DNA of 48,167 nt from the IMG/VR virus record IMGVR_UViG_2721755721_000005. One strand, given 5' to 3'. Source of the DNA: a virus (lineage: Duplodnaviria > Heunggongvirae > Uroviricota > Caudoviricetes). Shown one piece after another: positions 19,026 to 45,150 of this stretch (the stretch's first letter is position 1; each line of letters opens with the position of its first letter). The notes under the pieces are model-generated. The model saw nothing but the letters and a program-made list of their open reading frames with translations, was not told the origin of the DNA and did not search any database. A program made the translations under genes and the position numbers.

Positions 19026-19596
19026 ACAGGTAATTCTCCTTTTTGAATTTTCAACATGTTATAACTAATTATATATTTATCATATAACTGTATGAATAAA
19101 TTGTGAGATTAGTAATGCAAGTTTCTATCCATAGTGTTCCCTAAGTACCCGCTTCCATCATGTTGTTACGGACGGTATGGCTAAAACAAAGCACCTGAAG
19201 TTAAACGTTCTGAACTTTATGCTCGTTGAGCATATGAATTATCTGTAACCCGATGCGCTGGTTGTGGTTCAAATTGATGGTCGTAATCAGCAGCGGTAGT
19301 GCCTGATGGCATGCAACTTCTTACTTATAAAACTTCGTATGGAATTGTTGCCATAACGAGCCCAGCTTAGCAGTTTTTAATGGGTCCTCCCGGCAGTGTG
19401 TCCTGCCACGGGGCGGGAGCGTCGCGGAAAAAGGCTAGTTTTTGAAATTTCATCCGTCATCACCACTACTGTAATAGATTGATATTACAGTATTTTTATT
19501 TTTGTGGTGTCGATTTTGATTGTTTTTTGTTCATCACTAACACCGTTTGCCTAAAGTCGTTCGCAAGATGCATGTTTAAAACATTCTGGAGCGGGT

Positions 19597-20091
19597 ATGG
19601 ATCGAGAGTTAAAAAATCTGACGCTGAATATCAGTCAACTGGCGGCACTGTCAGGTGTACATCGCCAGACTGCTGCGGCAAGGCTGCAAAATCTACCCGT
19701 TGCAGGGGGGCATGAAAGCAACCTCAAGCTTTATCGGGTGGTTGATATTGTGTCGGCATTTCTGGCATTACCACCGCCGGTTGCAGAAGGCGAAATGGAC
19801 GCGCATGAGCGCAAAGCCTGGTATCAGTCTGAACGTGAGCGTCTTAAGTTCGAACAGGAAACGGCGCAACTCATTCCGGCCAGTGATGTCAGACGGGAGT
19901 TTGCCATCTGGGCAAAAGCGGTCGTGCAGGTGCTGGAGACATTACCGGATATTCTGGAACGTGACTGCGGTCTGCAGCCTGCCGCTGTGAGCCGTGTTCA
20001 GTCCATTATTGATGATCTGCGCGATCAGATAGCCCTGCGGGTGACTGTAGCAGGTGCGGATGATGAGGAGGAATTACAGCAGGAGGAGTAA
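19597..20091 (+). CDS. Terminase small subunit (Nu1-like)
   Basis: 164-aa ORF with an N-terminal HTH-like segment (LTLNISQLAALSGVHRQTAAARL) immediately upstream of and abutting the large terminase gene. Confidence 0.8.
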   Translation: MDRELKNLTLNISQLAALSGVHRQTAAARLQNLPVAGGHESNLKLYRVVDIVSAFLALPPPVAEGEMDAHERKAWYQSERERLKFEQETAQLIPASDVRREFAIWAKAVVQVLETLPDILERDCGLQPAAVSRVQSIIDDLRDQIALRVTVAGADDEEELQQEE

Positions 20092-22193
20092 TGCTGAATC
20101 AGGAAACCGCAAAGGCAGCACGAACCGATTCAGGTTATATCCTTCGCGCACCGAGACGAATGCGGGTTGCTGATGCCGTTGCTCAGTATATGCGGGTGCC
20201 CATGGGGGCAGGGAACTCAGTCCCGTGGGATCCGCTGGTGGCACCGTATGTTATTGAGCCGATGAACTGCCTGGCCTCGCGTGAATACGACGCAGTGATA
20301 TTTGTTGGCCCGGCACGAACCGGCAAGACTATCGGCCTGATTGACGGCTGGGTGATTTACAACGTGATTTGCGATCCTGCTGATATGCTGATCATTCAGA
20401 TGACGGAGGAAAAAGCCCGCGAACACTCCAAAAAACGACTCGCCAGAACGTTTCGCGTCAGCCCGGAAGTGGTCAGTCGCCTGAGTCCGAACAAAAATGA
20501 CAACAACGTTTATGACAGAACATTCCTTGCTGGCAACTACCTGAAAATCGGCTGGCCGTCAGTCAATATCATGTCTTCATCAGATTATAAATGCGTGGCG
20601 CTGACGGATTATGACCGTTTTCCGGAAGATATTGATGGTGAGGGGGATGCCTTCTCTCTTGCCTCAAAACGTACCACCACATTTATGTCCAGTGGTATGA
20701 CGCTTGTGGAGAGTTCCCCCGGCAGGGATGTGAAGGATGTGAAATGGCGACGGACTTCACCGCATGAGGCTCCACCAACCACGGGGATCCTGTCGCTCTA
20801 TAACCGTGGCGATCGCCGTCGCTGGTACTGGCCCTGTCCACACTGTGGTGAGTATTTTCAGCCCTGCGGCGATGTGGTTGCTGGTTTCCGTGATATTGCC
20901 GATCCTGTGCTGGCAAGTGAGGCGGCTTATATTCAGTGTCCTTCCTGTTCAGGACGGATTTTGCCTGAACAAAAACGCGAGCTGAACGGACGTGGGGTCT
21001 GGTTACGGGATGGTGAATCCATCAATGCAGATGGCAGTCGTTATGGTGATCCCCGGCGTTCACGTATTGCGTCATTCTGGATGGAGGGTCCGGCAGCTGC
21101 TTATCAGACACTCTCGCAACTCGTTTACAAACTGCTTACTGCAGAACAGGAATACGAGACAACCGGAAGTGAAGAGACACTCAAGACGGTTATCAATACC
21201 GACTGGGGATTACCTTATCTTCCCCGCGCCAGCATGGAGCAACGAAAAAGTGAATTGCTTGAGCAGCGGGCAGAGCCAGTTCCTTCCCGCAGTGTGCCGG
21301 ATGGCGTTAATTTCCTTGTGGCGACAGTGGATGTGCAGGCGGGACGTCATCGCCGTTTTGTGGTTCAGGTAACGGGCTATGGCAGCCGTGGCGAACGCTG
21401 GATTATTGATCGTTACAACATCACGCAGTCATTGCGCGGTGACAGCGACGGGGAGAGCCAGCGAATTGATCCGGCCAGCTATCCGGAAGACTGGGATGTC
21501 CTGCTGACGGATGTTTTTCATAAAAGCTGGCCGCTGGCCTCCGACCCTTCTCAACAAATGCGACTGATGGCAATGGCGGTGGACTCCGGCGGTGAAGACG
21601 GGGTCACTGATAATGCCTATAAATTCTGGCGTCGTTGCCGTCGTGATGGCCTTGGTAAACGTATTTACCTGTTTAAGGGCGACAGCATCCGGCGCGCAAA
21701 ACTGATCACCCGTACATTCCCTGATAACACCGGACGAACGGGCCGACGGGCGCAGGCCGCAGGTGATGTGCCGCTCTGGCTTCTTCAGACGGATGCCCTG
21801 AAAGACCGGGTGAATAACGCGTTATGGCGTGACTCGCCAGGTCCCGGCTATGTGCATTTCCCTGACTGGCTGGGGAGCTGGTTTTACGACGAACTGACGT
21901 ATGAAGAGCGGAGCAGTGACGGGAAATGGAGTAAGCCGGGTCGCGGTGCCAACGAAGCTTTTGACCTGATGGTGTATGCCGAGGCTCTGGTCATTCTGCA
22001 TGGATACGAAAAGATCCGCTGGCCGGATGCACCGGAGTGGGCGAGCCGGGAAACCTGGCTGGAGTGTGTCCCGGACAGTACCGAACCGTCACCCTCACCG
22101 GAACCGGTACCCACGCCTGTTAAAAAACAAAAACGGAAGAAAACAGTAACTGACGATGTTAACCCCTGGCTGACTTCCGGAGGATGGTTATGA
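20091..22193 (+). CDS. Terminase large subunit (GpA-like)
   Basis: 700 aa; Walker-A-like VGPARTGKT; lambda gpA-like size and position. Confidence 0.9.
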   Translation: MLNQETAKAARTDSGYILRAPRRMRVADAVAQYMRVPMGAGNSVPWDPLVAPYVIEPMNCLASREYDAVIFVGPARTGKTIGLIDGWVIYNVICDPADMLIIQMTEEKAREHSKKRLARTFRVSPEVVSRLSPNKNDNNVYDRTFLAGNYLKIGWPSVNIMSSSDYKCVALTDYDRFPEDIDGEGDAFSLASKRTTTFMSSGMTLVESSPGRDVKDVKWRRTSPHEAPPTTGILSLYNRGDRRRWYWPCPHCGEYFQPCGDVVAGFRDIADPVLASEAAYIQCPSCSGRILPEQKRELNGRGVWLRDGESINADGSRYGDPRRSRIASFWMEGPAAAYQTLSQLVYKLLTAEQEYETTGSEETLKTVINTDWGLPYLPRASMEQRKSELLEQRAEPVPSRSVPDGVNFLVATVDVQAGRHRRFVVQVTGYGSRGERWIIDRYNITQSLRGDSDGESQRIDPASYPEDWDVLLTDVFHKSWPLASDPSQQMRLMAMAVDSGGEDGVTDNAYKFWRRCRRDGLGKRIYLFKGDSIRRAKLITRTFPDNTGRTGRRAQAAGDVPLWLLQTDALKDRVNNALWRDSPGPGYVHFPDWLGSWFYDELTYEERSSDGKWSKPGRGANEAFDLMVYAEALVILHGYEKIRWPDAPEWASRETWLECVPDSTEPSPSPEPVPTPVKKQKRKKTVTDDVNPWLTSGGWL

Positions 22194-22402
22194 ATCAGAA
22201 TGATATTGAAGCCATGATTCAGCGTTATACGGAAGCTGAAATGGCGGTGCTGGACGGAAAATCCGTCACTTTTAATGGTCAGCAGATGACCATGGAAAAC
22301 TTATCTGAGATCCGGCAGGGGCGGCAGGAGTGGGAGCGCCGCCTTGCGGCTCTGATTACACGACGACGGGGGCATCCCGGGTACCGGCTGGCGAGGTTCT
22401 GA
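22184..22402 (+). CDS. Head-tail joining protein gpW-like
   Basis: About 70-aa ORF overlapping the terminase stop and the portal start, as W does in lambda. Confidence 0.6.
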   Translation: MVMNQNDIEAMIQRYTEAEMAVLDGKSVTFNGQQMTMENLSEIRQGRQEWERRLAALITRRRGHPGYRLARF

Positions 22403-23910
22403 TGGCATTTCTTGATGATGTGATTGGCGTTTTTTCACCAGGATGGAAAGCGGCAAGGCTGCGTTCCCGTGCGGTGATCCAGGCTTATGAGGCCGTAAAA
22501 ACGACGCGGACACACAAAGCCCGACGGGAGAACCGAACTGCCGACCAGTTAAGCCAGTACGGGGCCGTGTCGTTACGTGAGCAGGCTCGTTACCTTGATA
22601 ACAACCACGATCTGGTCATTGGTGTATTTGACAAGCTGGAAGAACGGGTGGTGGGGAAAAACGGGATTATTGTCGAGCCACATCCGGTATTACGCAATGG
22701 GGCCATTGCCCGTGATCTGGCAGCGGAGATACGTACCCGATGGAGTGAATGGTCTGTCAGTCCGGAGGTCACCGGGCAGTTTACCCGTCCGATGCTGGAA
22801 CGTCTGATGCTGCGTACCTGGCTGCGCGATGGTGAGGTGTTTGCCCAGATGGTTTCCGGGCGCATAAACAGCCTGACGCCTTCTGCCGGTGTTCATTTCT
22901 GGCTGGAGGCGCTCGAGCCGGACTTTATTCCCATGACCAGTGATGAGAGCAACAGGCTGAATCAGGGCGTGTTTGTTGATGACTGGGGGCGTCCCGAAAA
23001 ATATCTGGTGTATAAAAGCCGTCCCGTATCCGGGCGGCAGATGGAAACCAAAGAAGTGGATGCAGAGCGAATGCTGCATCTTAAATTTGTTCGCCGTCTG
23101 CACCAGATGCGCGGGACGTCTTTGTTGTCCGGTGTGCTGATCCGCCTCAGTGCTCTGAAAGAGTATGAAGATTCTGAGCTGACTGCAGCAAGGATCGCCG
23201 CTGCTCTGGGGATGTACATCCGGAAAGGCGACGGGCAGAGCTATGAACCGGATGGTAATGGCAGCAAGGAGAATGAACGCGAGCTTACCATTCAGCCAGG
23301 CATTATTTACGACGATCTGAAACCCGGCGAAGAAATCGGAATGGTGAAGTCGGATCGTCCCAATCCTAACCTTGAAACTTTTCGTAATGGTCAGTTGCGT
23401 GCCGTGGCGGCGGGCAGTCGTCTGAGTTTTTCCAGTACGGCACGCAACTATAACGGCACTTACAGCGCCCAGCGTCAGGAACTGGTTGAGTCTACTGATG
23501 GCTACCTGATCCTGCAGGACTGGTTTATTGGTGCCGTCACCCGCCCGATGTATCGTGCCTGGCTGAAACAGGCTGTGGCATCCGGTGTTATCAGGCTACC
23601 CCGTGATCTTGACCGTTCTTCACTGTATACCGCGGTGTATTCCGGACCGGTGATGCCGTGGATTGACCCTGTTAAGGAGGCTGAGGCCTGGAAAATCCAG
23701 ATTCGTGGTGGAGCGGCGACAGAATCAGACTGGGTACGTGCTGGTGGTCGTAATCCGGATGATGTCAAACGTCGGCGCAAGGCCGAAATTGATGAAAACC
23801 GCAAGCTGGATCTGGTATTTGATACCGATCCGGCCAGTGATAAAGGAGGCAGCAGTGCCGCAACGAAACGACAGGAGCCGCAGCACACCGACGACCAGTC
23901 CGAAGAATAA
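22402..23910 (+). CDS. Portal protein (gpB-like)
   Basis: ATG overlaps the W stop (ATGA); about 500 aa, directly after terminase and W. Confidence 0.85.
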   Translation: MAFLDDVIGVFSPGWKAARLRSRAVIQAYEAVKTTRTHKARRENRTADQLSQYGAVSLREQARYLDNNHDLVIGVFDKLEERVVGKNGIIVEPHPVLRNGAIARDLAAEIRTRWSEWSVSPEVTGQFTRPMLERLMLRTWLRDGEVFAQMVSGRINSLTPSAGVHFWLEALEPDFIPMTSDESNRLNQGVFVDDWGRPEKYLVYKSRPVSGRQMETKEVDAERMLHLKFVRRLHQMRGTSLLSGVLIRLSALKEYEDSELTAARIAAALGMYIRKGDGQSYEPDGNGSKENERELTIQPGIIYDDLKPGEEIGMVKSDRPNPNLETFRNGQLRAVAAGSRLSFSSTARNYNGTYSAQRQELVESTDGYLILQDWFIGAVTRPMYRAWLKQAVASGVIRLPRDLDRSSLYTAVYSGPVMPWIDPVKEAEAWKIQIRGGAATESDWVRAGGRNPDDVKRRRKAEIDENRKLDLVFDTDPASDKGGSSAATKRQEPQHTDDQSEE

Positions 23911-25885
23911 TTCCTGGTTCAGGATGCAGGCTGGTCACCAGAGTGACGCGGATATTTATATTTATGACGAGATTGGTTTCTGGGGTGTTACAGCGAAGCA
24001 GTTTATCAGTGATCTGAATGCACTGGGCGATATCACCCACATTAATCTCCATATTAATTCACCGGGTGGCGATGTCTTTGAAGGCATCGCCATTTTTAAT
24101 GCGCTGAAAACACATGGTGCGTCCATTACCGTTTATGTCGACGGTGTGGCGGCGTCAATGGCGTCGGTCATTGCGATGGTGGGAAACCCGGTCATTATGC
24201 CGGAAAACACCTTCATGATGATTCATAAACCATTTGGCTTTACGGGCGGTGATGCGGAGGACATGCGCACCTATGCCGACCTGCTCGATAAGGTTGAGGC
24301 GGTTCTGTTACCCGCTTATGCACAGAAAACCGGGAAAACCACCGATGAAATTGCTGCCATGCTGGTGGATGAGACCTGGATGTCCGGTGCCGAATGTCTG
24401 GCACATGGATTTGCTGATCAGGTAACGCCAGCCGTTAAGGCAATGGCATGTATTCAGTCAAAACGTACAGAGGAATTTAAAAAGATGCCGGAATCCATTC
24501 GAAACATGATTACTCCGCCACGCAACAGTGCTCCACGCGTACAGGATGATGAACCTGCAGCCTCCCGGACGCCAGTGCAGGCAGCAGCAGCACCCGTGGT
24601 GGATGAAAACAGCATCCGTGCGCAGGTCCTGGCAGAGCAAAAAGCGCGTGTAAACGGTATTAATGATCTGTTTGCCATGTTTGGCGGGCGTTATCAGTCG
24701 CTGCAGGCTCAGTGTCTTGCCGATCCTGAATGTTCGCTGGAGCAGGCCCGCGAAAAGCTGTTGAACGAGATGGGGCACGAGTCCACGCCATCCAATAAAA
24801 ATACCCCGGCTCATATTTATGCCGGTAACGGTAATTTTGTGGGGGACGGGATCCGCCAGGCGCTGATGGCGCGTGCCGGATTTGAAAAAACCGAACGTGA
24901 TAATGTCTACAACGGGATGACCCTGCGTGAATATGCCCGTATGTCACTGACTGAACGGGGTATTGGGGTTTCCAGTTATAACCCGATGCAGATGGTCGGT
25001 GCGGCGTTCACACACAGTACGTCTGACTTCGGTAATATTCTGCTGGATGTTGCGAACAAAGCCATTCTGCAGGGCTGGGAAGATGCCCCTGAAACCTATG
25101 AACAGTGGACGCGGAAAGGTCAGTTGTCTGATTTTAAAATTGCCCATCGTGTGGGTATGGGGGGCTTCAGTGCTCTGCGTCAGGTGCGTGAAGGGGCGGA
25201 ATATAAATACGTCACCACCGGAGATAAACAGGCCACTATTGCACTGGCGACCTATGGCGAGCTGTTCAGTATCACCCGTCAGGCCATTATCAATGATGAT
25301 CTGAATATGCTGACCGATGTCCCGATGAAACTGGGCCGTGCGGCGAAATCCACTATTGCCGATCTGGTTTATGCCATTCTGACGTCTAACCCGAAAATCT
25401 CCACAGATAATGTAAGTCTGTTCGATAAAGCGAAACATGCAAACGTACTGGAGAGCGCTGCAATGGACGTGGCATCGCTGGATAAAGCCCGCCAGTTGAT
25501 GCGCGTTCAGAAAGAGGGGGAGCGTCATCTGAATATTCGTCCTGCGTTCGTACTGGTACCGACGGCGATGGAGTCTGTTGCTAACCAGGTCATTCGCTCC
25601 TCAAGTGTCAAGGGGGCTGACATTAACGCCGGTATTATTAACCCGGTGAAAGATTTTGCGACCGTTATTGCAGAGCCTCGTCTTGATGATAACAGCCAGA
25701 CCACCTTCTACCTGGCTGCGTCAAAAGGCTCCGATACGATTGAAGTGGCTTATCTCAACGGTGTGGATACGCCATATATTGATCAGATGGAGGGCTTCAG
25801 TGTGGATGGCGTGACAACGAAAGTGCGTATTGACGCCGGTGTCGCGCCAGTTGATCACCGCGGTCTGGTGAAATGTACGGCGTAA
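23855..25885 (+). CDS. Fused prohead protease (ClpP/S14-like) and HK97-fold major capsid protein
   Basis: GTG start with AAGGAGG SD. N-terminal region IYIYDEIGFWGV...INSPGGDVFEGIAIFNAL...VDGVAASMASVIAM is ClpP-like; the C-terminal ~330 aa is major-capsid-like. Confidence 0.8.
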   Translation: MPQRNDRSRSTPTTSPKNNSWFRMQAGHQSDADIYIYDEIGFWGVTAKQFISDLNALGDITHINLHINSPGGDVFEGIAIFNALKTHGASITVYVDGVAASMASVIAMVGNPVIMPENTFMMIHKPFGFTGGDAEDMRTYADLLDKVEAVLLPAYAQKTGKTTDEIAAMLVDETWMSGAECLAHGFADQVTPAVKAMACIQSKRTEEFKKMPESIRNMITPPRNSAPRVQDDEPAASRTPVQAAAAPVVDENSIRAQVLAEQKARVNGINDLFAMFGGRYQSLQAQCLADPECSLEQAREKLLNEMGHESTPSNKNTPAHIYAGNGNFVGDGIRQALMARAGFEKTERDNVYNGMTLREYARMSLTERGIGVSSYNPMQMVGAAFTHSTSDFGNILLDVANKAILQGWEDAPETYEQWTRKGQLSDFKIAHRVGMGGFSALRQVREGAEYKYVTTGDKQATIALATYGELFSITRQAIINDDLNMLTDVPMKLGRAAKSTIADLVYAILTSNPKISTDNVSLFDKAKHANVLESAAMDVASLDKARQLMRVQKEGERHLNIRPAFVLVPTAMESVANQVIRSSSVKGADINAGIINPVKDFATVIAEPRLDDNSQTTFYLAASKGSDTIEVAYLNGVDTPYIDQMEGFSVDGVTTKVRIDAGVAPVDHRGLVKCTA

Positions 25886-25907
25886 ACGTCGCAGACAACA
25901 ACTCTGA

Positions 25908-25928
25908 TGGCCCGTAAGGGCTTTTTTT
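25908..25928 (+). terminator. Weak hairpin plus T7 run after the capsid gene (possible attenuator)
   Basis: GGCCC-gtaa-GGGC followed by TTTTTTT; a second hairpin CAGCCCC-tgaa-CGGGGCTG at 25940-25958. Confidence 0.3.
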
Positions 25929-25971
25929 GTACCTGAAATCAGCCCCTGAACGGGGCTGTGCGGAGGCAGTT

Positions 25972-26295
25972 ATGGCAAAGAATTTTGTAGAAGAAGGAAA
26001 AACGGTGGCGATTGTTGCCAGTGCAGCCATCAGCAGCGGAGATCTGGTGCAGGTGGGTGATGTTTTTGCGGTGGCGCTGACCAATATTCCACAGGGTGAA
26101 ACAGGCGACGGCATGACCGAAGGTGTGTTTATGCTGCCTAAGCTGAAAACGGATGACATGAAAACGGGTAAGAAGGTTTATCTGAAGTCCGGAAAAGTTC
26201 AGCTGACTAACAGCGGCTCTGATCCGCTGGTCGGGGTTGTCTGGGCAGATGCCGGAACCAGTGCAGAAGAAGTGCCGGTAAAACTCAATGTCTGA
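25972..26295 (+). CDS. Small head protein (possible decoration or head-completion protein)
   Basis: 108 aa from an internal ATG with GGAGG SD; immediately after the capsid gene. Confidence 0.45.
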   Translation: MAKNFVEEGKTVAIVASAAISSGDLVQVGDVFAVALTNIPQGETGDGMTEGVFMLPKLKTDDMKTGKKVYLKSGKVQLTNSGSDPLVGVVWADAGTSAEEVPVKLNV

Positions 26296-26563
26296 TCCCT
26301 TTTCCCGGCTGGCAGCGCGTATGGATGCTATCACGGTCAGAAAGATGGGAAAGACAGCCTCGATTAATGATGTCGATATGACTGTGATCCCGGGAGAAAC
26401 ACTGGCAGAGCTGAATGCTCTGTCCGGACCTGCGGTCTCTCTGGTGGTGTTTTCTTCGGGATACCGCCCACGGCGCGGGGATCGCGTTGTTTATGACGGA
26501 CAACAATGGACGGTCACACGGCATGAACGTTTTAACGGTAAGCCAATGATCTTTATTGAGTAA
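26288..26563 (+). CDS. Head-tail connector/adaptor-like protein
   Basis: 91-aa ORF between the head genes and gpZ. Confidence 0.45.
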   Translation: MSDPFSRLAARMDAITVRKMGKTASINDVDMTVIPGETLAELNALSGPAVSLVVFSSGYRPRRGDRVVYDGQQWTVTRHERFNGKPMIFIE

Positions 26564-26574
26564 AGAGGTGTGGG

Positions 26575-27153
26575 ATGAAGGGGCTTGAGAATGCCATCCG
26601 CAATCTGAACAGCCTTGATACCCATATGGTGCCACAGGCCAGCGCATGGGCGATAAACCGTGTGGCACAGAAAGCGGTCTCGGTTGCCACCCGGCAGGTT
26701 GCCGGGAATACCGTTGCGGGAGATAACCAGGTGAAAGGGATCCCCCTGAAACTGGTACGTCAGCGTGTCCGGGTGTTTAAAGCCAGTCCGTCAGGAAAAA
26801 TGACGGCCAGGATCCGCGTTAACCGGGGCAATCTGCCCGCCATTAAGCTGGGGACAGCCCGGGTCAGACTGGCCCGGCGTGGTGGAAAACTGCAGTACCG
26901 TGGCAGTGTGCTGAAGGTGGGTAAATATCTTTTCCGGGATGCGTTTATTCAGCAACTGGCGAATGGTCGCTGGCATGTGATGCGGCGTATTGATGGCAAA
27001 AATCGTTACCCCATTGATGTGGTGAAAATCCCGCTGTCCGGACCGCTGACACAGGCATTTGAAGATGCCCGCGACCGCATCATTGCTGCGGAAATGCCGA
27101 AACAGCTGGGGTATGCACTGAAACAACAACTGAGGTTATGGCTGACCCGATGA
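26575..27153 (+). CDS. Z: Minor tail protein Z
   Basis: 192 aa; MKGLE...NGRWHVMRRIDGKNRYPIDVVKIP...LGYAL.QQLR closely matches lambda gpZ. Confidence 0.8.
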   Translation: MKGLENAIRNLNSLDTHMVPQASAWAINRVAQKAVSVATRQVAGNTVAGDNQVKGIPLKLVRQRVRVFKASPSGKMTARIRVNRGNLPAIKLGTARVRLARRGGKLQYRGSVLKVGKYLFRDAFIQQLANGRWHVMRRIDGKNRYPIDVVKIPLSGPLTQAFEDARDRIIAAEMPKQLGYALKQQLRLWLTR

Positions 27154-27551
27154 ACCGACATACACAAATCCGCCAGGCCGTACTGGCACGCCTTCGGGAA
27201 CAGTGTGGAGACAGCGCCACGTTTTTTGACGGGCTTCCGGCATTTATTGATGCGCAGGAACTGCCTGCCGTGGCGGTGTGGCTGAGTGATGCTCAGTACA
27301 CCGGAAAAATGACGGATGAAGATGACTGGCAGGCTGTTCTGCATATTGCTGTCTTCATCCGGGCACAGGCACCGGATTCAGAGCTGGATATGTGGATGGA
27401 GAGCACCATTTTCCCGGCTCTGAATGATATACCGGCACTTTCCGGACTCATCGACACCCTGATCCCTCTCGGTTTTAACTATCAACGTGATAATGAGATG
27501 GCCACCTGGGCGATGGCGGAAATCACGTACCAGATCACGTACACGAATTAA
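27150..27551 (+). CDS. U: Minor tail protein U (tail terminator)
   Basis: ATGA overlap with the Z stop; ATFFDG...AVAVWLSDAQYTG...PDSELDMWMES...IPALS matches lambda gpU. Confidence 0.8.
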   Translation: MNRHTQIRQAVLARLREQCGDSATFFDGLPAFIDAQELPAVAVWLSDAQYTGKMTDEDDWQAVLHIAVFIRAQAPDSELDMWMESTIFPALNDIPALSGLIDTLIPLGFNYQRDNEMATWAMAEITYQITYTN

Positions 27552-27556
27552 AGGAG

Positions 27557-28306
27557 GTGGCAATGACCACACCAAATCCACTGGCAAAAACGAAAGGTGC
27601 GGGAACGACGTTCTGGATGTACACCGGCAATGGCGATGCGTTTGCGAACCCTTTATCGGACACTGACTGGCTGCGTCTTGCGATGGTGAAGGATCTGCAA
27701 CCTGGCGAAATGACCGCTGATGCAGAAGATGACACTTATCTCGATGATGAAGATGCAGACTGGAAAACGACAACCCAGGGGCAGAAATCCGTCGGTGATA
27801 CTTCGGCGACGCTGGCCTGGCGTCCGGGTGACAGCGGGCAGAAAAAACTGGTTCAGTTGTTCGACTCCGGTGAAGTCTGCGCGTTTCGTATCAAATATCC
27901 CAACGGCACTGTTGATGTTTTCCGTGGCTGGCTGAGCTCACTGGGTAAAACCATTGCCTCAAAAGACGTGATGACCCGCACAGTGAAAATCAGCGGTGTG
28001 GGGCGTCCGCATCTGGCAGAGGAAGGCACTGAAACAGTGAGCGTTACCGGGCTGACGGTGGCACCGGCATCTGCCAGTGTAAAAGTGGGAGCAACCACCA
28101 CGCTGACCTTTACAGTAAAACCTGACGGAGCCAGTGACAAAGCGATCAGTGTGCATTCGACAGATCCACAGACTGCCACGGTGACCCTGAACGGGCTTGT
28201 GGCCACGGTGAAAGGCGTGAAGCAGGGCAGTGTCAGCATTGTGGGCATGACTTCTGACGGCGATTTTGTGGCCGTGGCTGCGGTGGCTGTCAGCGCCGCA
28301 GGTTAA
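27557..28306 (+). CDS. V: Major tail protein V with C-terminal Ig-like domain
   Basis: 249 aa; lambda gpV-like size and position; C-terminal VSVTGLTVAPASASVKVGATTTLTFTVKPDGASDKAISVHSTDPQTATV is Big_2-like. Confidence 0.85.
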   Translation: MAMTTPNPLAKTKGAGTTFWMYTGNGDAFANPLSDTDWLRLAMVKDLQPGEMTADAEDDTYLDDEDADWKTTTQGQKSVGDTSATLAWRPGDSGQKKLVQLFDSGEVCAFRIKYPNGTVDVFRGWLSSLGKTIASKDVMTRTVKISGVGRPHLAEEGTETVSVTGLTVAPASASVKVGATTTLTFTVKPDGASDKAISVHSTDPQTATVTLNGLVATVKGVKQGSVSIVGMTSDGDFVAVAAVAVSAAG

Positions 28307-28325
28307 CAGGACGATACTCATCATT

Positions 28326-28349
28326 TGCCCCGGTTATCCGGGGCTTTTT
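28326..28349 (+). terminator. Hairpin terminator/attenuator after V
   Basis: GCCCCGG-ttat-CCGGGGC followed by TTTTTT. Confidence 0.5.
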
Positions 28350-28548
28350 TGCAGGTGGAGAACATGATGTTTCTGAAACAGGGCTCGTTTAATTATGAAA
28401 AGCAGTCCGTGGTGCTCAGTGAGCTGTCCGGGCTGCAGAGAATTGAATATCTGGCGTTTGTTCGTAAGCGTAAACTGACCGCCGTATGTAGCCATCAGAC
28501 GAGAATTGGTAACTTAGACGCCCATCTGATATAGACGGACATCTAAGT

Positions 28549-28974
28549 ATGGAATTACAGGACTGGCGAAAAGAACCTCGTAAAAACTATTCGAATGAAT
28601 TCAAACTTCGTATGGTGGAACTGGCATCACAACCTGGAGCTTGTGTTGCACAGATTGCACGTGAAAATGGCGTCAATGATAATGTTATTTTCAAATGGCT
28701 CAGGCTCTGGCAGAACGAAGGGCGTGTTTCGCGGCGTCTTCCGGTAACGACCTCTTCTGACACTGGCGTTGAATTATTACCTGTAGAAATAACGCCGGAT
28801 GAGCAGAAAGAACCTGTGGCGGCCATTGCGCCGTCTTTATCCACTTCCACTCAGACCAGAGTCAGTGCCAGTTCCTGCAAGGTGGAATTCCGTCACGGTA
28901 ACATGACGCTGGAAAATCCATCGCCAGAGCTGCTCACAGTGTTGATCCGTGAACTGACCGGGAGGGGAAGATGA
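28549..28974 (+). CDS. IS66-family accessory protein TnpA (orf1)
   Basis: 141 aa; first ORF of the IS; HTH-like N-terminus. Confidence 0.8.
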   Translation: MELQDWRKEPRKNYSNEFKLRMVELASQPGACVAQIARENGVNDNVIFKWLRLWQNEGRVSRRLPVTTSSDTGVELLPVEITPDEQKEPVAAIAPSLSTSTQTRVSASSCKVEFRHGNMTLENPSPELLTVLIRELTGRGR

Positions 28975-29321
28975 TCTCACTCCCATCAGGTACCCGTATC
29001 TGGCTCGTTGCCGGCGTTACCGATATGCGTAAATCCTTCAACGGACTGGGAGAACAGGTACAACATGTGCTGAATGATAATCCCTTCTCCGGTCACCTGT
29101 TTATCTTCCGTGGCCGACGGGGTGACACCGTCAAAATTCTTTGGGCTGATGCTGATGGTCTGTGCCTGTTCACCAAACGCCTGGAGGAAGGCCAGTTTAT
29201 CTGGCCTGCGGTACGTGACGGCAAGGTATCCATTACCCGCTCGCAACTGGCAATGCTCCTCGATAAGCTGGACTGGCGTCAGCCAAAAACATCCAGCCGT
29301 AACTCACTGACAATGTTGTAA
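28971..29321 (+). CDS. IS66-family accessory protein TnpB (orf2)
   Basis: 116 aa; ATGA overlap with the tnpA stop; MISLPSGTRIWLVAGVTDMRKSFNGL pattern. Confidence 0.8.
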   Translation: MISLPSGTRIWLVAGVTDMRKSFNGLGEQVQHVLNDNPFSGHLFIFRGRRGDTVKILWADADGLCLFTKRLEEGQFIWPAVRDGKVSITRSQLAMLLDKLDWRQPKTSSRNSLTML

Positions 29322-29351
29322 AAAACTCCTGACCGCATTATAAAAACGGTC

Positions 29352-30965
29352 ATGAGTCAGAAATACCTCATTCGCATCGCAGAGCTGGAAAGGTTGCTCT
29401 CTGAGCAGGCTGAAGCCCTCCGTCAGAAAGACCAGCAACTGAGTCTGGTTGAAGAGACGGAAGCCTTCCTGCGCTCTGCACTGACACGTGCCGAAGAAAA
29501 GATCGAAGAAGATGAACGGGAAATAGAACATCTGCGGGCTCAGATAGAAAAACTGCGCCGGATGCTGTTCGGTACCCGTTCTGAAAAACTGCGTCGTGAA
29601 GTTGAACTGGCTGAGGCTCTGCTGAAACAACGTGAACAGGACAGCGATCGTTACAGTGGGCGGGAAGACGATCCTCAGGTTCCCCGCCAGTTGCGACAGT
29701 CGCGCCATCGTCGTCCGTTACCGGCACACCTTCCCCGTGAAATACACCGCCTGGAGCCAGAAGAAAGCTGTTGCCCGGAGTGTGGCGGTGAGCTGGATTA
29801 TCTGGGGGAAGTCAGCGCTGAACAGCTGGAACTGGTGAGCAGTGCCCTGAAAGTGATCCGCACAGAACGGGTAAAAAAAGCCTGTACAAAATGTGACTGT
29901 ATTGTTGAAGCACCGGCGCCGTCCCGCCCGATAGAGCGTGGTATCGCGGGCCCCGGATTACTTGCCCGCGTGTTAACGGGAAAATACTGCGAACATCTGC
30001 CACTGTATCGTCAGAGTGAAATCTTTGCCCGCCAGGGTGTCGAACTGAGCCGGGCCTTACTCTCCAACTGGGTTGACGCGTGCTGCCAGTTAATGACACC
30101 GGTGAATGATGCCCTGTACCGTTATGTAATGAACACCCGCAAGGTTCACACTGATGACACACCGGTAAAGGTACTGGCACCGGGTCAGAAAAAGGCGAAA
30201 ACAGGGCGTATCTGGACGTATGTCCGGGATGATCGCAATGTGGGTTCGTCATCTCCTCCAGCGGTCTGGTTCGCGTACTCGCCGAACCGGCAGGGGAAAC
30301 ACCCGGAGCAACACCTCCGCCCCTTCCGGGGTATCCTGCAGGCGGATGCGTTCACAGGTTACGACAGGTTGTTCAGTGCAGAACGTGAAGGTGGTGCACT
30401 GACAGAAGTTGCGTGCTGGGCCCATGCCCGGCGAAAAATCCACGATGTATACATCAGCAGCAAAAGTGCGACGGCAGAAGAAGCCCTGAAGCGAATCAGT
30501 GAACTGTACGCCATCGAGGATGAAATACGGGGATTACCGGAGTTAGAGCGTCTTGCCGTCAGGCAGCAGCGAAGCAAAGTGTTACTGACGTCGCTGCATG
30601 AATGGATGGTGGAGAAGAATGGTACGCTGTCGAAAAAATCCAGACTGGGCGAAGCGTTCAGCTATGTACTGAATCAGTGGGATGCCCTCTGTTATTACAG
30701 TGATGACGGTCTGGCGGAGGCGGATAATAATGCTGCGGAAAGAGCGCTTCGTGCAGTCTGTCTCGGAAAGAAAAACTTTATGTTCTTTGGCAGCGATCAC
30801 GGCGGCGAGCGTGGAGCACTGTTGTACGGGCTGATCGGCACCTGCCGTCTGAACGGTATCGATCCGGAAGCGTATCTGCGCCATATCCTGAGCGTACTGC
30901 CGGAATGGCCTTCCAACCGAGTTGATGAACTCCTGCCATGGAACGTAGTACTCACCAATAAATAA
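29352..30965 (+). CDS. IS66-family transposase TnpC (orf3)
   Basis: 537 aa; N-terminal leucine-zipper/coiled coil, CPECGG zinc motif, central DDE-type region. Confidence 0.85.
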   Translation: MSQKYLIRIAELERLLSEQAEALRQKDQQLSLVEETEAFLRSALTRAEEKIEEDEREIEHLRAQIEKLRRMLFGTRSEKLRREVELAEALLKQREQDSDRYSGREDDPQVPRQLRQSRHRRPLPAHLPREIHRLEPEESCCPECGGELDYLGEVSAEQLELVSSALKVIRTERVKKACTKCDCIVEAPAPSRPIERGIAGPGLLARVLTGKYCEHLPLYRQSEIFARQGVELSRALLSNWVDACCQLMTPVNDALYRYVMNTRKVHTDDTPVKVLAPGQKKAKTGRIWTYVRDDRNVGSSSPPAVWFAYSPNRQGKHPEQHLRPFRGILQADAFTGYDRLFSAEREGGALTEVACWAHARRKIHDVYISSKSATAEEALKRISELYAIEDEIRGLPELERLAVRQQRSKVLLTSLHEWMVEKNGTLSKKSRLGEAFSYVLNQWDALCYYSDDGLAEADNNAAERALRAVCLGKKNFMFFGSDHGGERGALLYGLIGTCRLNGIDPEAYLRHILSVLPEWPSNRVDELLPWNVVLTNK

Positions 30966-31301
30966 GCGTCAATACGGTGCTCCGTTGACGCTTACGTTTG
31001 TTCAGCAGCGAACGGCAAAGTTTGATGCCGAAGAGGGAGAACTGCCGGAGGCTGAACGACAGATTGCTTTTCTGCGGATGGGGATGGATATCAATGCCTG
31101 GCTGGTTTCCCGCTCACTGTGGAATGCGGAACAGTCTCAGGATGTTGAGACGCTTTGCGCATCCGTTATTACAACATGGTCGTATGATGCCCTGGGAGCG
31201 GGGGCGGAGATGGTTCTGTCGCTGAGCGGTATGGGAGCCATTGAGAATGCCGGGGATTTGGAGCATGAGGTGCTGACGCCGGAAAAGTCCTGACGCGGGA
31301 A

Positions 31302-31631
31302 ATGCAGTTTGTCATGCGGCTTGCCCGGGAGTTCCGGCGGGCAGACTGGCGGCGGATGCTGTCGGAAATGTCGGCCACTGAGCTTGGTGAATGGGGCGAT
31401 TATTTCCAGATGCAGAGCTTCAGTGATGTGTGGATGGATGCGCAGTTTGCCTCGCTGAAGGCATTGATCGTGAGAATGGTGTCCGGTAGCAGTGATGCTG
31501 CGGTGGCTGATTTCAGCCTTTTACCGGAAGAGAACGGGATACCGGAGCGAACGGACGAAGAACTGATGCATCTTGGGGAAGGTATTTCCGGAGGTGTGCG
31601 TTATGGACCAGATAGCCAACCTGGTCATTGA
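31302..31631 (+). CDS. T: gpT segment of the G-T frameshift product (-1 frame relative to G)
   Basis: The frame is open from 31269 and is -1 relative to the G frame; it overlaps the G 3' end across GGAAAAG (31281-31287). Same architecture as the lambda G/GT programmed frameshift. Confidence 0.6.
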   Translation: MQFVMRLAREFRRADWRRMLSEMSATELGEWGDYFQMQSFSDVWMDAQFASLKALIVRMVSGSSDAAVADFSLLPEENGIPERTDEELMHLGEGISGGVRYGPDSQPGH

Positions 31632-34600
31632 TTTGGGGATTGATGCGGCAGAGTTTAAAAATGAAATTCCCCGTATCAAAAACCTTCTGAATGGTGCAGC
31701 CAGCGATGCAGAACGGTCTTCTGCCCGTATGCAGCGTTTTATGGAGCGTCAGACTCAGGCCGCCCGGCAGACAATGCAGGCGGCTTCTTCGGCTGCAACA
31801 GCCGCATCCGTCCATGCGCAGACGGTGGAGAAGAGCGCACAGGCTCATGAACGCATGGCCCGCGAGGTGGAGCAAACCCGCCAGCGTATGGAGGCACTGA
31901 GCCAGAAAATGCGCGAGGAACAGGCGCAGGCCATGGCTCTGGCGGAGGCTCAGGATAAAGCGGCTGCCGCGTTTTATCGTCAGATTGACAGTGTGAAACA
32001 GGCCAGTGCGGGACTGCAGGAATTACAGCGTATTCAGCAGCAGATCCGACAGGCCAGAAACAGTGGCGGGATTGGTCAGCAGGATTATCTGGCGCTGATT
32101 TCTGAGGTTACGGCGAAAACCGGTGTTCTTACGCAGGCTGAGGCAGAGGCTACCCGACAGAAAGTGGCGTTTATCCGTCAGCTTAAAGAGCAGGCAACCC
32201 GCCAGAATCTTTCTTCTTCTGAGTTGCTTCGTGCTAAGGCTGCCCAGCTGGGGGTAAGCAGTGCTGCAGAAGTGTATATCCGCAAAATGGAGCAGGCAGG
32301 AAAAGCCACGCATTCGCTGGGTCTGAAAAGTGCAGCGGCCCGCCAGGAGATAGGCGTTCTGATAGGTGAACTGGCTCGCGGCAATTTAGGTGCGCTGAGG
32401 GGATCCGGGATAACGCTGGCTAACCGTGCCGGATGGATAGACACACTGATGTCACCGAAAGGCATGATGCTGGGCGGGGTTATTGGCGGTATTGCCGCGG
32501 CCGTCTATGGTCTGGGTAAAGCCTGGTATGATGGTCAGAAGGAGGGGGAAGAATTTAACCGCCAGTTGTCGCTGACGGGGCATTATGCCGGAGTCACTGC
32601 CGGGCAGCTGTGGACGCTCAGTCGTGCTATTTCCGGGAATGGTATTACGCAACATGCTGCAGCCGGTGCGCTGGCTCAGGTGGTGGGGAGTGGTGCATTT
32701 CGTGGAAACGATATCGGTATGGTGGCGAGAGCTGCCGCACAGATGGAGCGATCGGTTGGCCAGTCGGTCAGCGATACCATAAATCAGTTTAAGCGGCTGA
32801 AGGATGATCCTGTAAATGCCGCGAAGGCTCTGGACAATGAGCTGCATTTTCTTACTGCCACTCAGCTTGAGCAGATACGCGTCCTTGGGGAACAGGGGCG
32901 GTCCAGTGATGCGGCACGGATAGCCATGTCTGCACTGGCAGAGGAAACCGGTCGGCGTACTGCGGATATTGATAATAACCTCAATGCGCTGGGCAGTACG
33001 CTGAAGTATCTGTCTGATTTATGCAGTCGTTTCTGGGATGCGGCCATGAATATTGGTCGTGAAGACTCGCTGGATGAACAGATTTCCGCTTTACAGGAGA
33101 AAGTGTCGCGGGCGAAAAGACTCCCCTGGACGGCATCATCTTCTCAGGTTGAGTACGATCAGCAGCGTCTTAACGAGCTTCAGGAGAAAAAACGCCAGAA
33201 GGATTTGCAGGATGCAAAAGAGCAGGCAGAGCGGAATTATCAGGAGCAACAGAAACGCCGTAATGCTGAAAATGCTGCACTGAACCGGATGAATGAAACG
33301 GAAGCAGCACGACATCAGCGTGAAATTGCGCGTATTAATTCCATGCAGTACGCCGATCAGGCTGTCAGGGATGCGGCGATACAACGTGAAAATGAACGTT
33401 ACGAGAAAGCCCTGGCATCCGGTAAGAAAAAAACACGCGACCCCCGTAATGATGAGGCCACCCGGTTATTGCTGCAGTACAGTCAGCAACAGGCACAGGT
33501 GGAAGGACAGATTGCTGCTGCCAGACAGTCAGCAGGCATTGCCACGGAAAGGATGACAGAAGCGCATAAACAGCTTCTGGCTCTGCAGCAGCGCATCAGC
33601 GACCTGGACGGGAAAAAACTGACGGCAGATGAAAAGAGTGTGCTGGCCCGTAAAGATGAACTGATTCAGGCACTGACGCTGCTGGATGTAAAACAGCAGG
33701 AGCTTCAGAAACAGACGGCACTCAACGAGCTGAAGAAAAAAACAATTCAGCTGACCAGTCAACTGGCTGAAGAAGAGCGCGCTCAGCGTCAGCAACATGA
33801 CCTGGATATCGCCACGGTGGGTATGGGTGATCAGCAGCGGCAGCGATATCAGGTACAACTGAGTCTTCGCCAGAAATACCAGCAACAGCTGGAGCAGTTG
33901 AGGCGGGATAGTGAGCAGAAAGGAACATATAACACGGATGACTACAGAAAGGCCGAGCAGGCGCTGACGGAGAGCCTGAACCGACAACTGAATGAGAATC
34001 GCCGTTACTGGCAACAGCTTGAAGTTGTGCAGGGTAACTGGAAAAACGGAGTCCTGCGTGCATTTCAGGATTTTACCGTGGATGCAGATAATACGGCAGG
34101 AACAGCAGAACAGGTGTTCTCGTCAGCCTTCAGCAACATGGGAAATGGCCTGGCAACTTTTGTCACTACCGGCAAACTCAATTTCAAATCCTTCACCTCT
34201 TCTGTGCTGTCAGATATGGCGAAAATCCTGGCGCAGGCAACCATGATGAAATCGATAAAAGGGATTGGCAGTGTACTGAGATTTGATCTCAGCAGCCTTT
34301 CCCTGAATGCCAATGGGGGGATTTATCAGTCTGCTGATTTGAGTCGTTACAGTGGCACGGTGGTTAACCGTCCGACGTTTTTTGCTTTTGCAAAAGGCGC
34401 GGGTGTGATGGGGGAAGCGGGACCTGAAGCCATTCTGCCACTGCGTCGTGGTGCTGACGGTAAGCTGGGGGTTGTGGCGGATATTGGTGGTTCAGGTATG
34501 GCGATGTTTGCCCCGCAGTACAACATCGAGATCAATAACGATGGCACGAACGGGCAGATAGGTCCGGCTGCCCTGAAGGTGGTTTATGACCTCGGGAAAA

Positions 34601-34668
34601 AAGCGGCAGCGGACTTTATGCAACAGCAGGCCCGTGATGGTGGTCGGTTAAGTGGAGCATATCGGTAA
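31603..34668 (+). CDS. H: Tail tape-measure protein (gpH-like)
   Basis: About 1020 aa; start MDQIANLVIDLGIDAAEF with GGAGGTG SD; C-terminus ...NNDGTNGQIGPAALKVVYD matches the lambda gpH C-terminus. Confidence 0.85.
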   Translation: MDQIANLVIDLGIDAAEFKNEIPRIKNLLNGAASDAERSSARMQRFMERQTQAARQTMQAASSAATAASVHAQTVEKSAQAHERMAREVEQTRQRMEALSQKMREEQAQAMALAEAQDKAAAAFYRQIDSVKQASAGLQELQRIQQQIRQARNSGGIGQQDYLALISEVTAKTGVLTQAEAEATRQKVAFIRQLKEQATRQNLSSSELLRAKAAQLGVSSAAEVYIRKMEQAGKATHSLGLKSAAARQEIGVLIGELARGNLGALRGSGITLANRAGWIDTLMSPKGMMLGGVIGGIAAAVYGLGKAWYDGQKEGEEFNRQLSLTGHYAGVTAGQLWTLSRAISGNGITQHAAAGALAQVVGSGAFRGNDIGMVARAAAQMERSVGQSVSDTINQFKRLKDDPVNAAKALDNELHFLTATQLEQIRVLGEQGRSSDAARIAMSALAEETGRRTADIDNNLNALGSTLKYLSDLCSRFWDAAMNIGREDSLDEQISALQEKVSRAKRLPWTASSSQVEYDQQRLNELQEKKRQKDLQDAKEQAERNYQEQQKRRNAENAALNRMNETEAARHQREIARINSMQYADQAVRDAAIQRENERYEKALASGKKKTRDPRNDEATRLLLQYSQQQAQVEGQIAAARQSAGIATERMTEAHKQLLALQQRISDLDGKKLTADEKSVLARKDELIQALTLLDVKQQELQKQTALNELKKKTIQLTSQLAEEERAQRQQHDLDIATVGMGDQQRQRYQVQLSLRQKYQQQLEQLRRDSEQKGTYNTDDYRKAEQALTESLNRQLNENRRYWQQLEVVQGNWKNGVLRAFQDFTVDADNTAGTAEQVFSSAFSNMGNGLATFVTTGKLNFKSFTSSVLSDMAKILAQATMMKSIKGIGSVLRFDLSSLSLNANGGIYQSADLSRYSGTVVNRPTFFAFAKGAGVMGEAGPEAILPLRRGADGKLGVVADIGGSGMAMFAPQYNIEINNDGTNGQIGPAALKVVYDLGKKAAADFMQQQARDGGRLSGAYR

Positions 34669-44569: not shown

Positions 44570-45150
44570 TGGCATTCAGAATGAGTGAACAAGCACGGAC
44601 CATAAAAATTTATAATCTGCTGGCCGGAACTAATGAATTTATTGGTGAAGGTGACGCATATATTCCGCCTCATACAGGTCTGCCAGCAAACAGTACCGAT
44701 ATTGCACCACCAGATATTCCGGCAGGCTTCGTGGCTGTTTTCAACAGTGATGAGGCATCGTGGCATCTCGTTGAAGACCATCGGGGTAAAACGGTTTATG
44801 ACGTGGCTTCCGGCGACGCGTTATTTATTTCTGAACTCGGTCCGTTACCGGAAAATGTTACCTGGTTGTCGCCGGGAGGGGAATATCAGAAGTGGAACGG
44901 CACAGCCTGGGTGAAGGATACGGAAGCAGAAAAACTGTTCCGGATCCGGGAGGCAGAAGAAACAAAAAACAGCCTGATGCAGGTAGCCAGTGAGCATATT
45001 GCGCCACTTCAGGATGCTGTAGATCTGGAAATCGCAACGGAGGAAGAAATCTCGTTGCTGGAAGCCTGGAAGAAGTATCGGGTGTTGCTGAACCGTGTTA
45101 ATACAACAACTGCACCGGATATTGAATGGCCAGTAGCACCTATAGGGTAA
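44569..45150 (+). CDS. tfa: Tail fibre assembly protein Tfa
   Basis: [43 protein letters not shown]... lambda Tfa-like; ATG overlaps the stf stop. Confidence 0.9.

Follow-up and report, generated by a model that had tools for sequence, protein, structure and literature searches.

The tail-assembly chaperone gene G of the lambdoid prophage considered here, which resides at the ydfJ locus, has been interrupted at codon 33 by transposition of ISEc23 (a known three-gene member of the IS66 family of insertion sequences, widespread in Escherichia coli), an event that, judging from lambda, would have cost the prophage its tails. The window analysed, that is, the whole 48,167-nucleotide stretch of viral DNA (IMG/VR record IMGVR_UViG_2721755721_000005), had been the subject of a preliminary description, which placed within G an IS66-family element of 2532 bp with ends of the GTAAGCG type and three open reading frames; family, length, ends, reading frames and coordinates were all confirmed to the base. 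As read from the comparisons described below, the insertion is real, recent and lineage-specific, because a near-identical prophage free of the IS is available, none of 5,426 complete genomes carries the junction, and one NCBI draft assembly does. The element is known and so is the phenomenon, prophage decay of this kind being ordinary.

Disruption and reconstruction of gene G

Two copies of the octamer GTTTGTTC, at 28456..28463 and 30996..31003 (both on the plus strand), enclose exactly the 2532 bp of the element (28464..30995, plus strand, the orientation of the phage late operon), which bears out the 8-bp target-site duplication that had been claimed; an identical 8-mer would occur by chance at two fixed positions with a probability of 4^-8, or approximately 1.5e-5. 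The left copy forms part of the G codons A-F-V. The frame of G breaks after ...EYLAFV, continues through 23 foreign codons and reaches a stop at 28532-28534, and the corresponding entry in the list of open reading frames is a truncated product of 55 amino acids (28367..28534, plus strand) made up of 32 residues of G and 23 encoded by the IS. The orphaned 3' part of the gene (codons 34-129 in the numbering of the 129-residue protein; 31004..31293, plus strand) shares the frame of the 5' part after deletion of the IS and a single repeat, and the open frame of 129 amino acids that results (128 with the PGAP start, the second ATG, at 28367) agrees with the earlier statement that excision restores G exactly.

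The rejoined protein is a lambda-type tail assembly chaperone of the family Phage_TAC_2 (E 3.1e-39, with a score of 134 bits where the cut-off is 27) and shows 34% identity to the G protein of lambda (BLASTP E 1e-16); its gene lies downstream of the major tail gene and upstream of the tape measure gene, in the order V-G-T-H. Re-initiation at a TTG at 30985 or at internal ATG codons, leading to a functional, N-terminally truncated G, was considered and rejected: no Shine-Dalgarno-like sequence is visible upstream, and the N-terminal 32 residues that such a product would have lost are the stretch of G best conserved with its lambda counterpart. Exact-protein look-ups returned no record for the 56-residue truncated G that begins at the first ATG, nor for the 102-residue 3' reading frame of G that begins at the TTG; among the truncated forms tried, only the 55-residue G is on record, in the draft assembly GCA_017119405.1. 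The gene should be annotated as G::ISEc23, a pseudogene.

The inserted element and its other copies

The element matches annotated ISEc23 copies at 2532 of 2532 positions, and by the RefSeq annotation of such identical DNA (in which the transposase is termed an 'IS66-like element ISEc23 family transposase') it is the known ISEc23 rather than a new IS. Elements of the IS66 family have inverted repeats of 20-30 bp that start with GTAAGCG, and are flanked by 8-bp direct repeats (PMC11946415). The termini here read GTAAGCGTAAAC... on the left and ...GTTGACGCTTAC on the right; both ends start with GTAAGCGT, as is typical of the family's repeats of approximately 20-30 bp, and the left terminal inverted repeat (GTAAGCGTAAACTGACCGCCGTAT, 28464..28487, plus strand) agrees with the reverse complement of the right one (...ATACGGTGCTCCGTTGACGCTTAC, 30972..30995, plus strand) at 8/8, 14/17 or 20/24 positions, according to the length compared. 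The 8-bp duplication likewise conforms to the family, with GTTTGTTC on both sides of the element and in single copy in the empty site.

All three reading frames of the element are intact and lie on the same (plus) strand. The first, tnpA (28549..28974, 141 amino acids), encodes a helix-turn-helix accessory protein (Pfam HTH_Tnp_1, E 5e-12) and is identical in its DNA to the stretch annotated as WP_000422741.1 in another copy (L002); its stop overlaps, as ATGA, the start of tnpB (28971..29321, 116 amino acids), which encodes an IS66 Orf2-type accessory protein (Pfam TnpB_IS66, E 1e-36). Downstream of these two accessory genes, an arrangement characteristic of the family, lies tnpC (29352..30965, 537 amino acids), the product of which is a DDE transposase whose DDE_Tnp_IS66 domain (E 2.8e-97) covers positions 1-283 of the 284 in the Pfam profile, and which also contains the domains zf-IS66, LZ_Tnp_IS66 and DDE_Tnp_IS66_C. 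The transposase is a Leu398 variant, as opposed to the Ser398 of the commonest copies, through one changed nucleotide, at IS position 2081. All three frames have the same sequence as copies that are flanked by fresh duplications elsewhere.

ISEc23-related sequence is present in many copies (genomes have it at a median of 3 places and at 47 at most), and short-read assemblies break at ISEc23. Nine other copies, which represent seven independent sites (L004 and L016 being one insertion, and L005 and L007 flanking the same ESPR-type pseudogene), share the first and last bases of the matched element. Perfect 8-bp duplications surround five of the nine (at four independent sites), with a duplication of 7 bp at one copy, of 9 bp at another, and none at the remaining two. 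A preference of ISEc23 for T-rich targets, considered on the basis of the first five duplications, was abandoned, since further copies (CAATATCA and CTTCAGC) lent no support to the idea and too few sites are available.

The empty site and the age of the insertion

Related prophages that lack the IS, the comparison proposed at the outset, are available and give the expected answer: in Escherichia coli strain 1943 the two flanks abut at a single GTTTGTTC. Leftwards of the insertion, this 'twin' prophage differs at 3 of approximately 28,400 positions, and identity to it is 99.99% in one flank and 99.83% in the other. Many E. coli genomes, as well as phage vB_EcoS-569R4, moreover contain uninterrupted loci annotated as gpG that match a rebuilt empty site of 600 bp with 100% identity.

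The suggestion that the insertion is recent is upheld by the complete identity of the IS to other copies, by the near-identity of its flanks to those of the IS-free twin, and by the absence of the junction from the genomes searched. When a junction-spanning 600-mer was compared with 5,426 complete E. coli genomes, no record covered at least 80% of it, and the exact left junction (a 37-mer) was found 0 times both in GTDB species-representative genomes and in JGI metagenome contigs. A contig of the draft assembly GCA_017119405.1, which is possibly from the same strain as the source of this DNA, is 100% identical to window positions 18367-28579 and ends 116 nucleotides into the IS, which confirms the left junction independently.

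The prophage and a second disrupted gene

The prophage that received ISEc23 is lambdoid and full-length, at approximately 46 kb; it occupies the ydfJ (Qin) locus, with a ydfJ fragment at 46884..48167, and has its complete complement of head and tail genes. Its cargo comprises dicB, DicF, ydfD, hokD/sok, rem, rrrQ and tfaQ, as well as lom and a PD-T7-3-like defence candidate; the 'moron' region (8200-12000) gave no match in the phage collection. The earlier impression that the other morphogenesis genes are intact stands, as the head, tail and lysis reading frames have the same lengths as those of the twin, where they are annotated without pseudogene flags. From terminase to V, the head and tail genes are approximately 98-99% identical to those of plaque-forming phages such as mEp460, Ayreon and phi458.

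A second IS66-family element, of the ISCro1 type, splits the integrase gene; it went unnoticed in the preliminary description, and brings the disrupted genes of this prophage to two. Only its terminal 53 nucleotides (1..53, minus strand) lie within the window, the edge of which cuts it. They are 100% identical to the ends of a multi-copy IS that adjoin tnpA in other genomes, and in four other copies the similarity breaks off directly beyond position 53. The adjoining fragment (54..608, minus strand) encodes codons 1-185 of the 426 of a tyrosine integrase, as judged by translation against the intact integrase of strain 1943. Since the gene is split after codon 185, excision of the prophage is probably lost as well. 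At the far end of the full ISCro1-type element, a repeat of CTTAAACG is expected. A search for the junction between integrase and IS returned only four two-piece matches, approximately 400 bp apart, which are not the same junction; neither this junction nor that in G occurs in any complete genome searched, and an exact-protein look-up of the reconstructed 202-residue truncated integrase gave no record.

Predicted consequences for tail assembly

The genes that surround the insertion are those of a lambda-like tail operon, all on the plus strand. Upstream is the major tail tube gene V (27563..28306; Pfam Phage_TTP_12, E 7e-67, and Big_2, in agreement with the annotation of the twin), followed, between V and G, by a terminator-like hairpin and T-run (28327..28350) that is phage-derived rather than part of the IS, and that the annotation of phage Ayreon lists as a terminator. 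Downstream are the T reading frame (31302..31631; Pfam Phage_tail_T, E 5e-15), which by frame analysis is -1 relative to G, and the tape measure gene H (31603..34668; Pfam TMP_2, Tape_meas_lam_C and TMP_4), the product of which is the client of G and G-T. In lambda, T is made only as a G-T fusion. The T frame here is open only from 31269, leaving an overlap with G of 22 nucleotides (31269-31290), and the sole slippery-type site in that overlap is the heptamer G GAA AAG (31281..31287), which stands where lambda has GGGAAAG, contains an A-AAG lysine codon as in lambda and departs from the canonical X XXY YYZ pattern; it is the probable -1 frameshift site of G, as far as its sequence and position indicate. 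PGAP assigns T an ATG of its own at 31302, and a free T protein is formally possible.

Lambda requires both gpG and gpGT, and the tape measure is what they act upon (PMC3296357, PMC5009743). According to the lambda model, G would coat the tape measure protein H and G-T would recruit the tube protein V. Transposition of ISEc23 into codon 33 created the family-typical 8-bp duplication of GTTTGTTC, and ribosomes that start at G would halt 23 codons into the IS, without producing full-length G; nor should any G-T fusion be made, because T would be reached only if ribosomes slipped by -1 on arriving at the 3' end of G. The loss of both proteins would, by the biology of lambda, leave no functional tails, and by this analogy tail production has almost certainly stopped; on induction, the expected outcome would be DNA-filled heads and cell lysis. 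The tail genes downstream are probably still transcribed, because the IS is co-oriented with the late operon, which is Q-antiterminated, and offers no convincing intrinsic terminator: counts of intrinsic terminators and promoters inside the IS (as possible sources of polarity or outward transcription) were not above those in shuffled controls. Together with the split integrase, the lesion in G would represent an early stage of IS-driven prophage decay.

These observations raise no new question about IS66 elements or tail assembly. Their use lies in annotation and strain biology, where the prophage should be listed as deficient in tail assembly as well as in integration/excision; software that detects prophages would report it as intact despite the two lesions. 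Because the twin without the IS is nearly base-identical, the pair also lends itself naturally to a clean comparison of an mEp460-type phage with and without G and G-T.

Alternative explanations

An insertion that is real and yet has no phenotypic effect of its own is unlikely: the prophage might already have been immobilised by the IS in its integrase, or a co-resident lambdoid prophage might supply G and G-T in trans and so allow tailed particles to form after all, a point that bears on the tail-loss argument itself. The split integrase agrees with such an account, as do the related G loci, of which there are up to 6 per E. coli genome, and defective O157 prophages are packaged and transferred (PMC2669165). 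Loss of the integrase, however, blocks excision and not late-gene expression, so that the lesion in G still decides whether tails are made from this operon, and both the helper prophage and the order of the two insertions are assumptions. That the assembler wrongly placed a repeated IS in G is scarcely credible; ISEc23-related sequence is indeed multi-copy and short-read assemblies do break there, but a misjoin would not yield a perfect 8-bp duplication at both ends together with an exactly closing frame, and the identical left junction is present in a public draft assembly (possibly of the same strain).

DDE-type IS elements are rarely excised precisely. A selected or reversible inactivation, in which the IS acts as a 'switch' that the host lineage has retained for silencing virion production while useful cargo is kept, and in which precise excision could restore G, is very improbable, even with two independent IS66-family insertions in one prophage, an intact duplication that would permit exact reversion, and cargo worth keeping (the PD-T7-3-like defence candidate, hokD/sok, dicB/DicF and lom). 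With its lysis genes intact, the prophage would still kill the cell on induction, and two insertions are indistinguishable from chance in a genome that is probably rich in IS copies. There is only a slim prospect that the two insertions in this otherwise pristine prophage are not coincidental, and reflect either a host-favoured 'grounding' of the prophage (in which excision and virions are lost, and immunity, defence and toxin-antitoxin cargo is kept) or a real tendency of IS66-family elements to favour lambdoid prophages as targets. Transposition of ISEc23 into G, with loss of tails as its predicted consequence, is the reading strongly preferred here.

Comparison with known systems

With ISEc23 as known from other genomes, a name in use both in RefSeq/PGAP annotation and in the nomenclature of ISfinder, the element shares all 2532 bp, the three genes, the termini and the 8-bp duplication, and differs only in its site of insertion (gene G, not occupied in the complete genomes searched) and in carrying Leu398, rather than the commoner Ser398, in TnpC. 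IS66, IS679 and ISCro1 (ISEc8-like) have the same tnpA-tnpB-tnpC organization, terminal repeats of approximately 20-30 bp beginning GTAA and an 8-bp duplication, but are distinct from ISEc23 at the nucleotide level; the ISCro1-type end at window positions 1..53 reads GTAACCGG and not GTAAGCG. The correspondence with lambda gpG and gpGT extends to the Phage_TAC_2 and Phage_tail_T families, to a location flanked by V and H, and to a T frame that is shifted by -1 and briefly overlaps G where the latter ends, whereas the two G proteins are only 34% identical, the lambda slip site is GGGAAAG as against the candidate GGAAAAG, and G is disrupted here.

IS-disrupted lambdoid prophages of E. coli O157 Sakai (Sp4, for example, in which an IS disrupts nu1) likewise owe their inactivation to an IS in one essential late gene with intact neighbours; the IS, the gene and the prophage are different, and in the present case a near-identical twin free of the IS exists, the almost identical sequence of which indicates that the ISEc23 event is very young. 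The Qin prophage of K-12 (at ydfJ) occupies the same chromosomal site and has the same cargo (dicB, DicF, ydfD, hokD/sok, rem, rrrQ and tfaQ), but Qin is a short remnant, whereas the prophage described here is complete, at approximately 46 kb, with full sets of head and tail genes.

The inserted element

The lambda-type tail assembly chaperone gene (G) of this prophage carries a 2532-bp element (28464..30995) enclosed by two copies of the octamer GTTTGTTC, at 28456-28463 and 30996-31003, exactly as the preliminary description had reported. Its termini (left GTAAGCGTAAACTGACC..., right ...GGAGCACCGTTGACGCTTAC) form an inverted repeat that matches at all of the first 8 positions and at 20 of the first 24, and its plus strand encodes three ORFs: tnpA (28549..28974; HTH_Tnp_1, E 5e-12), tnpB (28971..29321; TnpB_IS66, E 1e-36), the start of which overlaps the preceding stop, and tnpC (29352..30965; DDE_Tnp_IS66, E 3e-97, with zf-IS66, LZ_Tnp_IS66 and DDE_Tnp_IS66_C). 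Judged by these Pfam domains, they are the tnpA-tnpB-tnpC trio that is canonical for the IS66 family. That family is characterized by 8-bp direct repeats and by terminal repeats of 20-30 bp starting GTAAGCG (PMC11946415), and both are found in 28464..30995; every testable hallmark of the family is present in the sequence, and the earlier assignment, reported with GTAAGCG-type ends and three transposition ORFs, stands.

The 2532 bp are matched (megablast) in 4,795 of 5,426 complete E. coli genomes, with at least 80% coverage at one place or more in 2,489. Among the matches listed, 16 records are 100% identical over 1-2532, with tnpA and tnpB present, and all 16 are annotated 'IS66-like element ISEc23 family transposase'. 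On this identity, the inserted element is ISEc23, a known IS. The probability that an 8-mer is repeated by chance at two prescribed positions is ~1.5e-5, and the biological controls that follow render a chance origin of the repeat irrelevant.

Nine other copies were examined with their flanks, some of which represent one insertion in different records (those at L004 and L016 are the same insertion, and those at L005 and L007 adjoin the same ESPR-type pseudogene), so that roughly seven sites are independent. The boundaries of the matched element fall at identical positions in every one of the nine, with GTAAGCGTAAAC at the start and GTTGACGCTTAC at the end. A perfect 8-bp duplication flanks five (four independent sites), and two more have direct repeats of another length, 7 bp at L007 (CTTCAGC) and 9 bp at L015 (TCAATATCA); a direct duplication is absent from two of the nine, L005 and L017, which suggests later rearrangement. 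Two chromosomal copies, in strains O39:NM F8704-2 and E110019, are base-identical to the window's copy and both have fresh duplications, so that this ISEc23 variant, with Leu398 in TnpC, is presumably active.

The interrupted gene

Conceptual excision restores the frame of G, as had been claimed: 28364..28463 joined to 31004..31293 yields an open frame of 129 aa (128 aa from the second ATG, at 28367, the start chosen by PGAP and one other gene caller) that belongs to Phage_TAC_2, the 'lambda tail assembly chaperone G' family (E 3.1e-39). The rejoined product is 34% identical to lambda G and best conserved in an N-terminal block, MFLK..SF....V.LSELS.LQRIE.LA. Upstream lies V (Phage_TTP_12 and Big_2), and downstream lie T (Phage_tail_T) and H (TMP_2 and Tape_meas_lam_C). 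As it now stands, the frame runs through 32 G residues and 23 IS-encoded residues to a stop at 28532-28534.

The T frame, at -1 relative to G, is open only from 31269 and overlaps G by 22 nt. The sole slippery-type heptamer within this overlap is G GAA AAG (31281-31287), which is non-canonical, whereas the corresponding lambda heptamer is G GGA AAG; the P-site codon would re-pair from GAA to GGA, so slippage may depend solely on the Lys codon in the A site. Its family, its position and the arrangement of the frames identify the target as a lambda-type gene for the chaperones G and G-T (the -1 frameshift product), with the frameshift itself predicted.

Empty sites and the age of the insertion

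When 300 bp of either flank are joined with a single GTTTGTTC, the resulting conceptual empty site matches uninterrupted gpG loci annotated in many E. coli genomes, and also phage vB_EcoS-569R4, at 100% identity, and 708 of the matching records are at least 99% identical to it. The IS-free twin prophage of E. coli strain 1943 (NZ_CP023359) aligns in two blocks, window 53-28463 with 842-29252 (3 mismatches) and window 30995-48167 with 29244-46416 (29 mismatches, mostly clustered in lom and stf). In strain 1943 these blocks overlap by exactly the duplicated octamer and one coincident base, and in this comparison with an IS-free relative, of the kind that had been proposed, the two flanks meet at a single octamer. 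Of the 29 right-side differences, 23 fall in two tight clusters, at 40741..40902 (lom) and 41749..42355 (stf, a tail-fibre gene), a distribution that would fit short patches of recombination better than point mutation.

The junction of G with the element (G::ISEc23) was found in none of the 5,426 complete E. coli genomes searched, nor in GTDB representative genomes or JGI metagenome contigs. The exact 55-aa truncated G product is recorded in one NCBI draft assembly (GCA_017119405.1, contig PQSI01000047.1). Over the 10,213 bp retrieved, this contig matches window 18367-28579 at 100% identity, and it stops 116 nt inside the IS, as expected of a short-read assembly. The near-identical twin, the absence of the junction from these genome sets and its presence in the draft assembly together show that the insertion is real, recent (as first proposed) and limited to one lineage.

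The host prophage

A lambdoid prophage at ydfJ (the Qin locus) makes up the window, which has a ydfJ fragment at its right end (46884..48167). The genes begin with xis and continue through exo, dicB, DicF, cI/cro, hokD/sok, Q, lysis, terminase, portal and a protease-capsid fusion to Z, U, V, G, T, H, M, L, K, I, J, lom, stf and tfa. For head, tail and lysis, the ORFs match in length those annotated in strain 1943, none of which is flagged there as a pseudogene, and the stretch from terminase to V (head and proximal tail genes) is ~98-99% identical to the isolated phages mEp460, Ayreon and phi458. The morphogenesis genes are, in this respect, as intact as initially described, but the integrase is split, which had been missed.

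Window 1-53 has no match to the twin prophage. A multi-copy sequence with 100% identity to it occurs in 1,450 genomes, at up to 17 places per genome, on chromosomes and plasmids, and in annotated records lies directly upstream of tnpA of an 'IS66-like element ISCro1 family' IS; four independent copies diverge mutually straight after position 53. This ISCro1-type end bears the terminus GTAACCGGCTCATTT on the minus strand and abuts an integrase fragment (54..608, minus strand) split after codon 185 of 426, the C-terminal half being severed from the promoter-proximal part. The window therefore opens within a second IS66-family element, with its far side beyond the window edge, that splits the tyrosine integrase, by simple insertion or at the edge of a rearrangement; this junction, too, occurs in none of the 5,426 complete E. 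coli genomes. In either case, excision and tail formation are probably both defective in this prophage. The same prophage has, in strains 2017.15.01CC and 19SZHZ803Rt, a ~1.26 kb IS3-family insertion in its head-to-tail part (the region corresponding to window 19000..28463), indicating that independent IS insertions recur on this prophage type.

Rfam matches above the gathering score comprise the DicF sRNA (4083..4134, minus strand), the sok antitoxin RNA beside hokD (12351..12526, plus strand), an 'IS009' RNA within the tail-fibre assembly gene tfa (44912..45110, plus strand) and a full-length RNAI (9559..9661, minus strand; 68 bits, gathering score 47). The last lies in ~590 bp (9559..10148) that share 72-82% identity with the replication regions of small ColE1-type plasmids, thousands of which match. 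It belongs to a low-GC moron region and is next to two minus-strand ORFs without an assigned function (8322..9029 and 9039..9509). Only 26 of the 5,426 complete E. coli genomes, and no phage record, contain the 2.3-kb segment; its ColE1-type RNAI/RNAII stretch is a putative origin inside the prophage. A 449-aa DUF4145 protein (10538..11887, plus strand) matches the PADLOC model PD-T7-3 (E 4e-15) and is a candidate prophage-encoded anti-phage defence gene. The origin-like RNAI/RNAII stretch and the adjacent PD-T7-3-like gene are more unusual than the IS insertion, and form no part of that finding.

Predicted consequences for tail assembly

In lambdoid phages, Q antiterminates late transcription, and a Q-type antiterminator gene is present at 14924..15745. 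A terminator scan inside the IS returned nothing exceeding shuffled expectation. With the IS co-oriented with the late operon, no terminator signal above chance and Q antitermination, polarity on H-J would probably be limited. Heads, packaging and lysis would be expected to go ahead.

Lambda requires both gpG and the frameshift product gpGT, at a ratio of ~30:1; G attaches to the tape measure and the T part brings in the tube protein, and neither G nor G-T is found in the virion (PMC3296357, PMC5009743). From the disrupted gene, full-length G would not be made, and neither would G-T, because translation in the G frame would end before the slip site; lacking both, the tape measure would be left unchaperoned and functional tails would not form. 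Re-initiation from TTG 30985 or from internal ATGs was considered and rejected, as there is no visible ribosome-binding site and any product would lack the conserved N-terminus.

Alternative explanations and known parallels

An assembly artefact is a very unlikely explanation in view of the target duplication, a frame that closes exactly on excision and the match to the left junction in a public draft assembly. The predicted tail defect could be relieved in trans by G and G-T from a co-resident lambdoid prophage: related G loci number up to six per genome, and defective prophages of O157 are packaged and transferred (PMC2669165). There is no evidence that the insertion is a selected or reversible 'switch'; with intact lysis genes in the prophage, induction would bring its host no gain in survival.

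Although accurate, the observation is an ordinary one, in which both the element and the process are known and only the site had no earlier record. Insertion of an IS into single essential genes of lambdoid prophages is already well documented, as in the Sakai prophage Sp4, where nu1 is IS-disrupted much as G is here.
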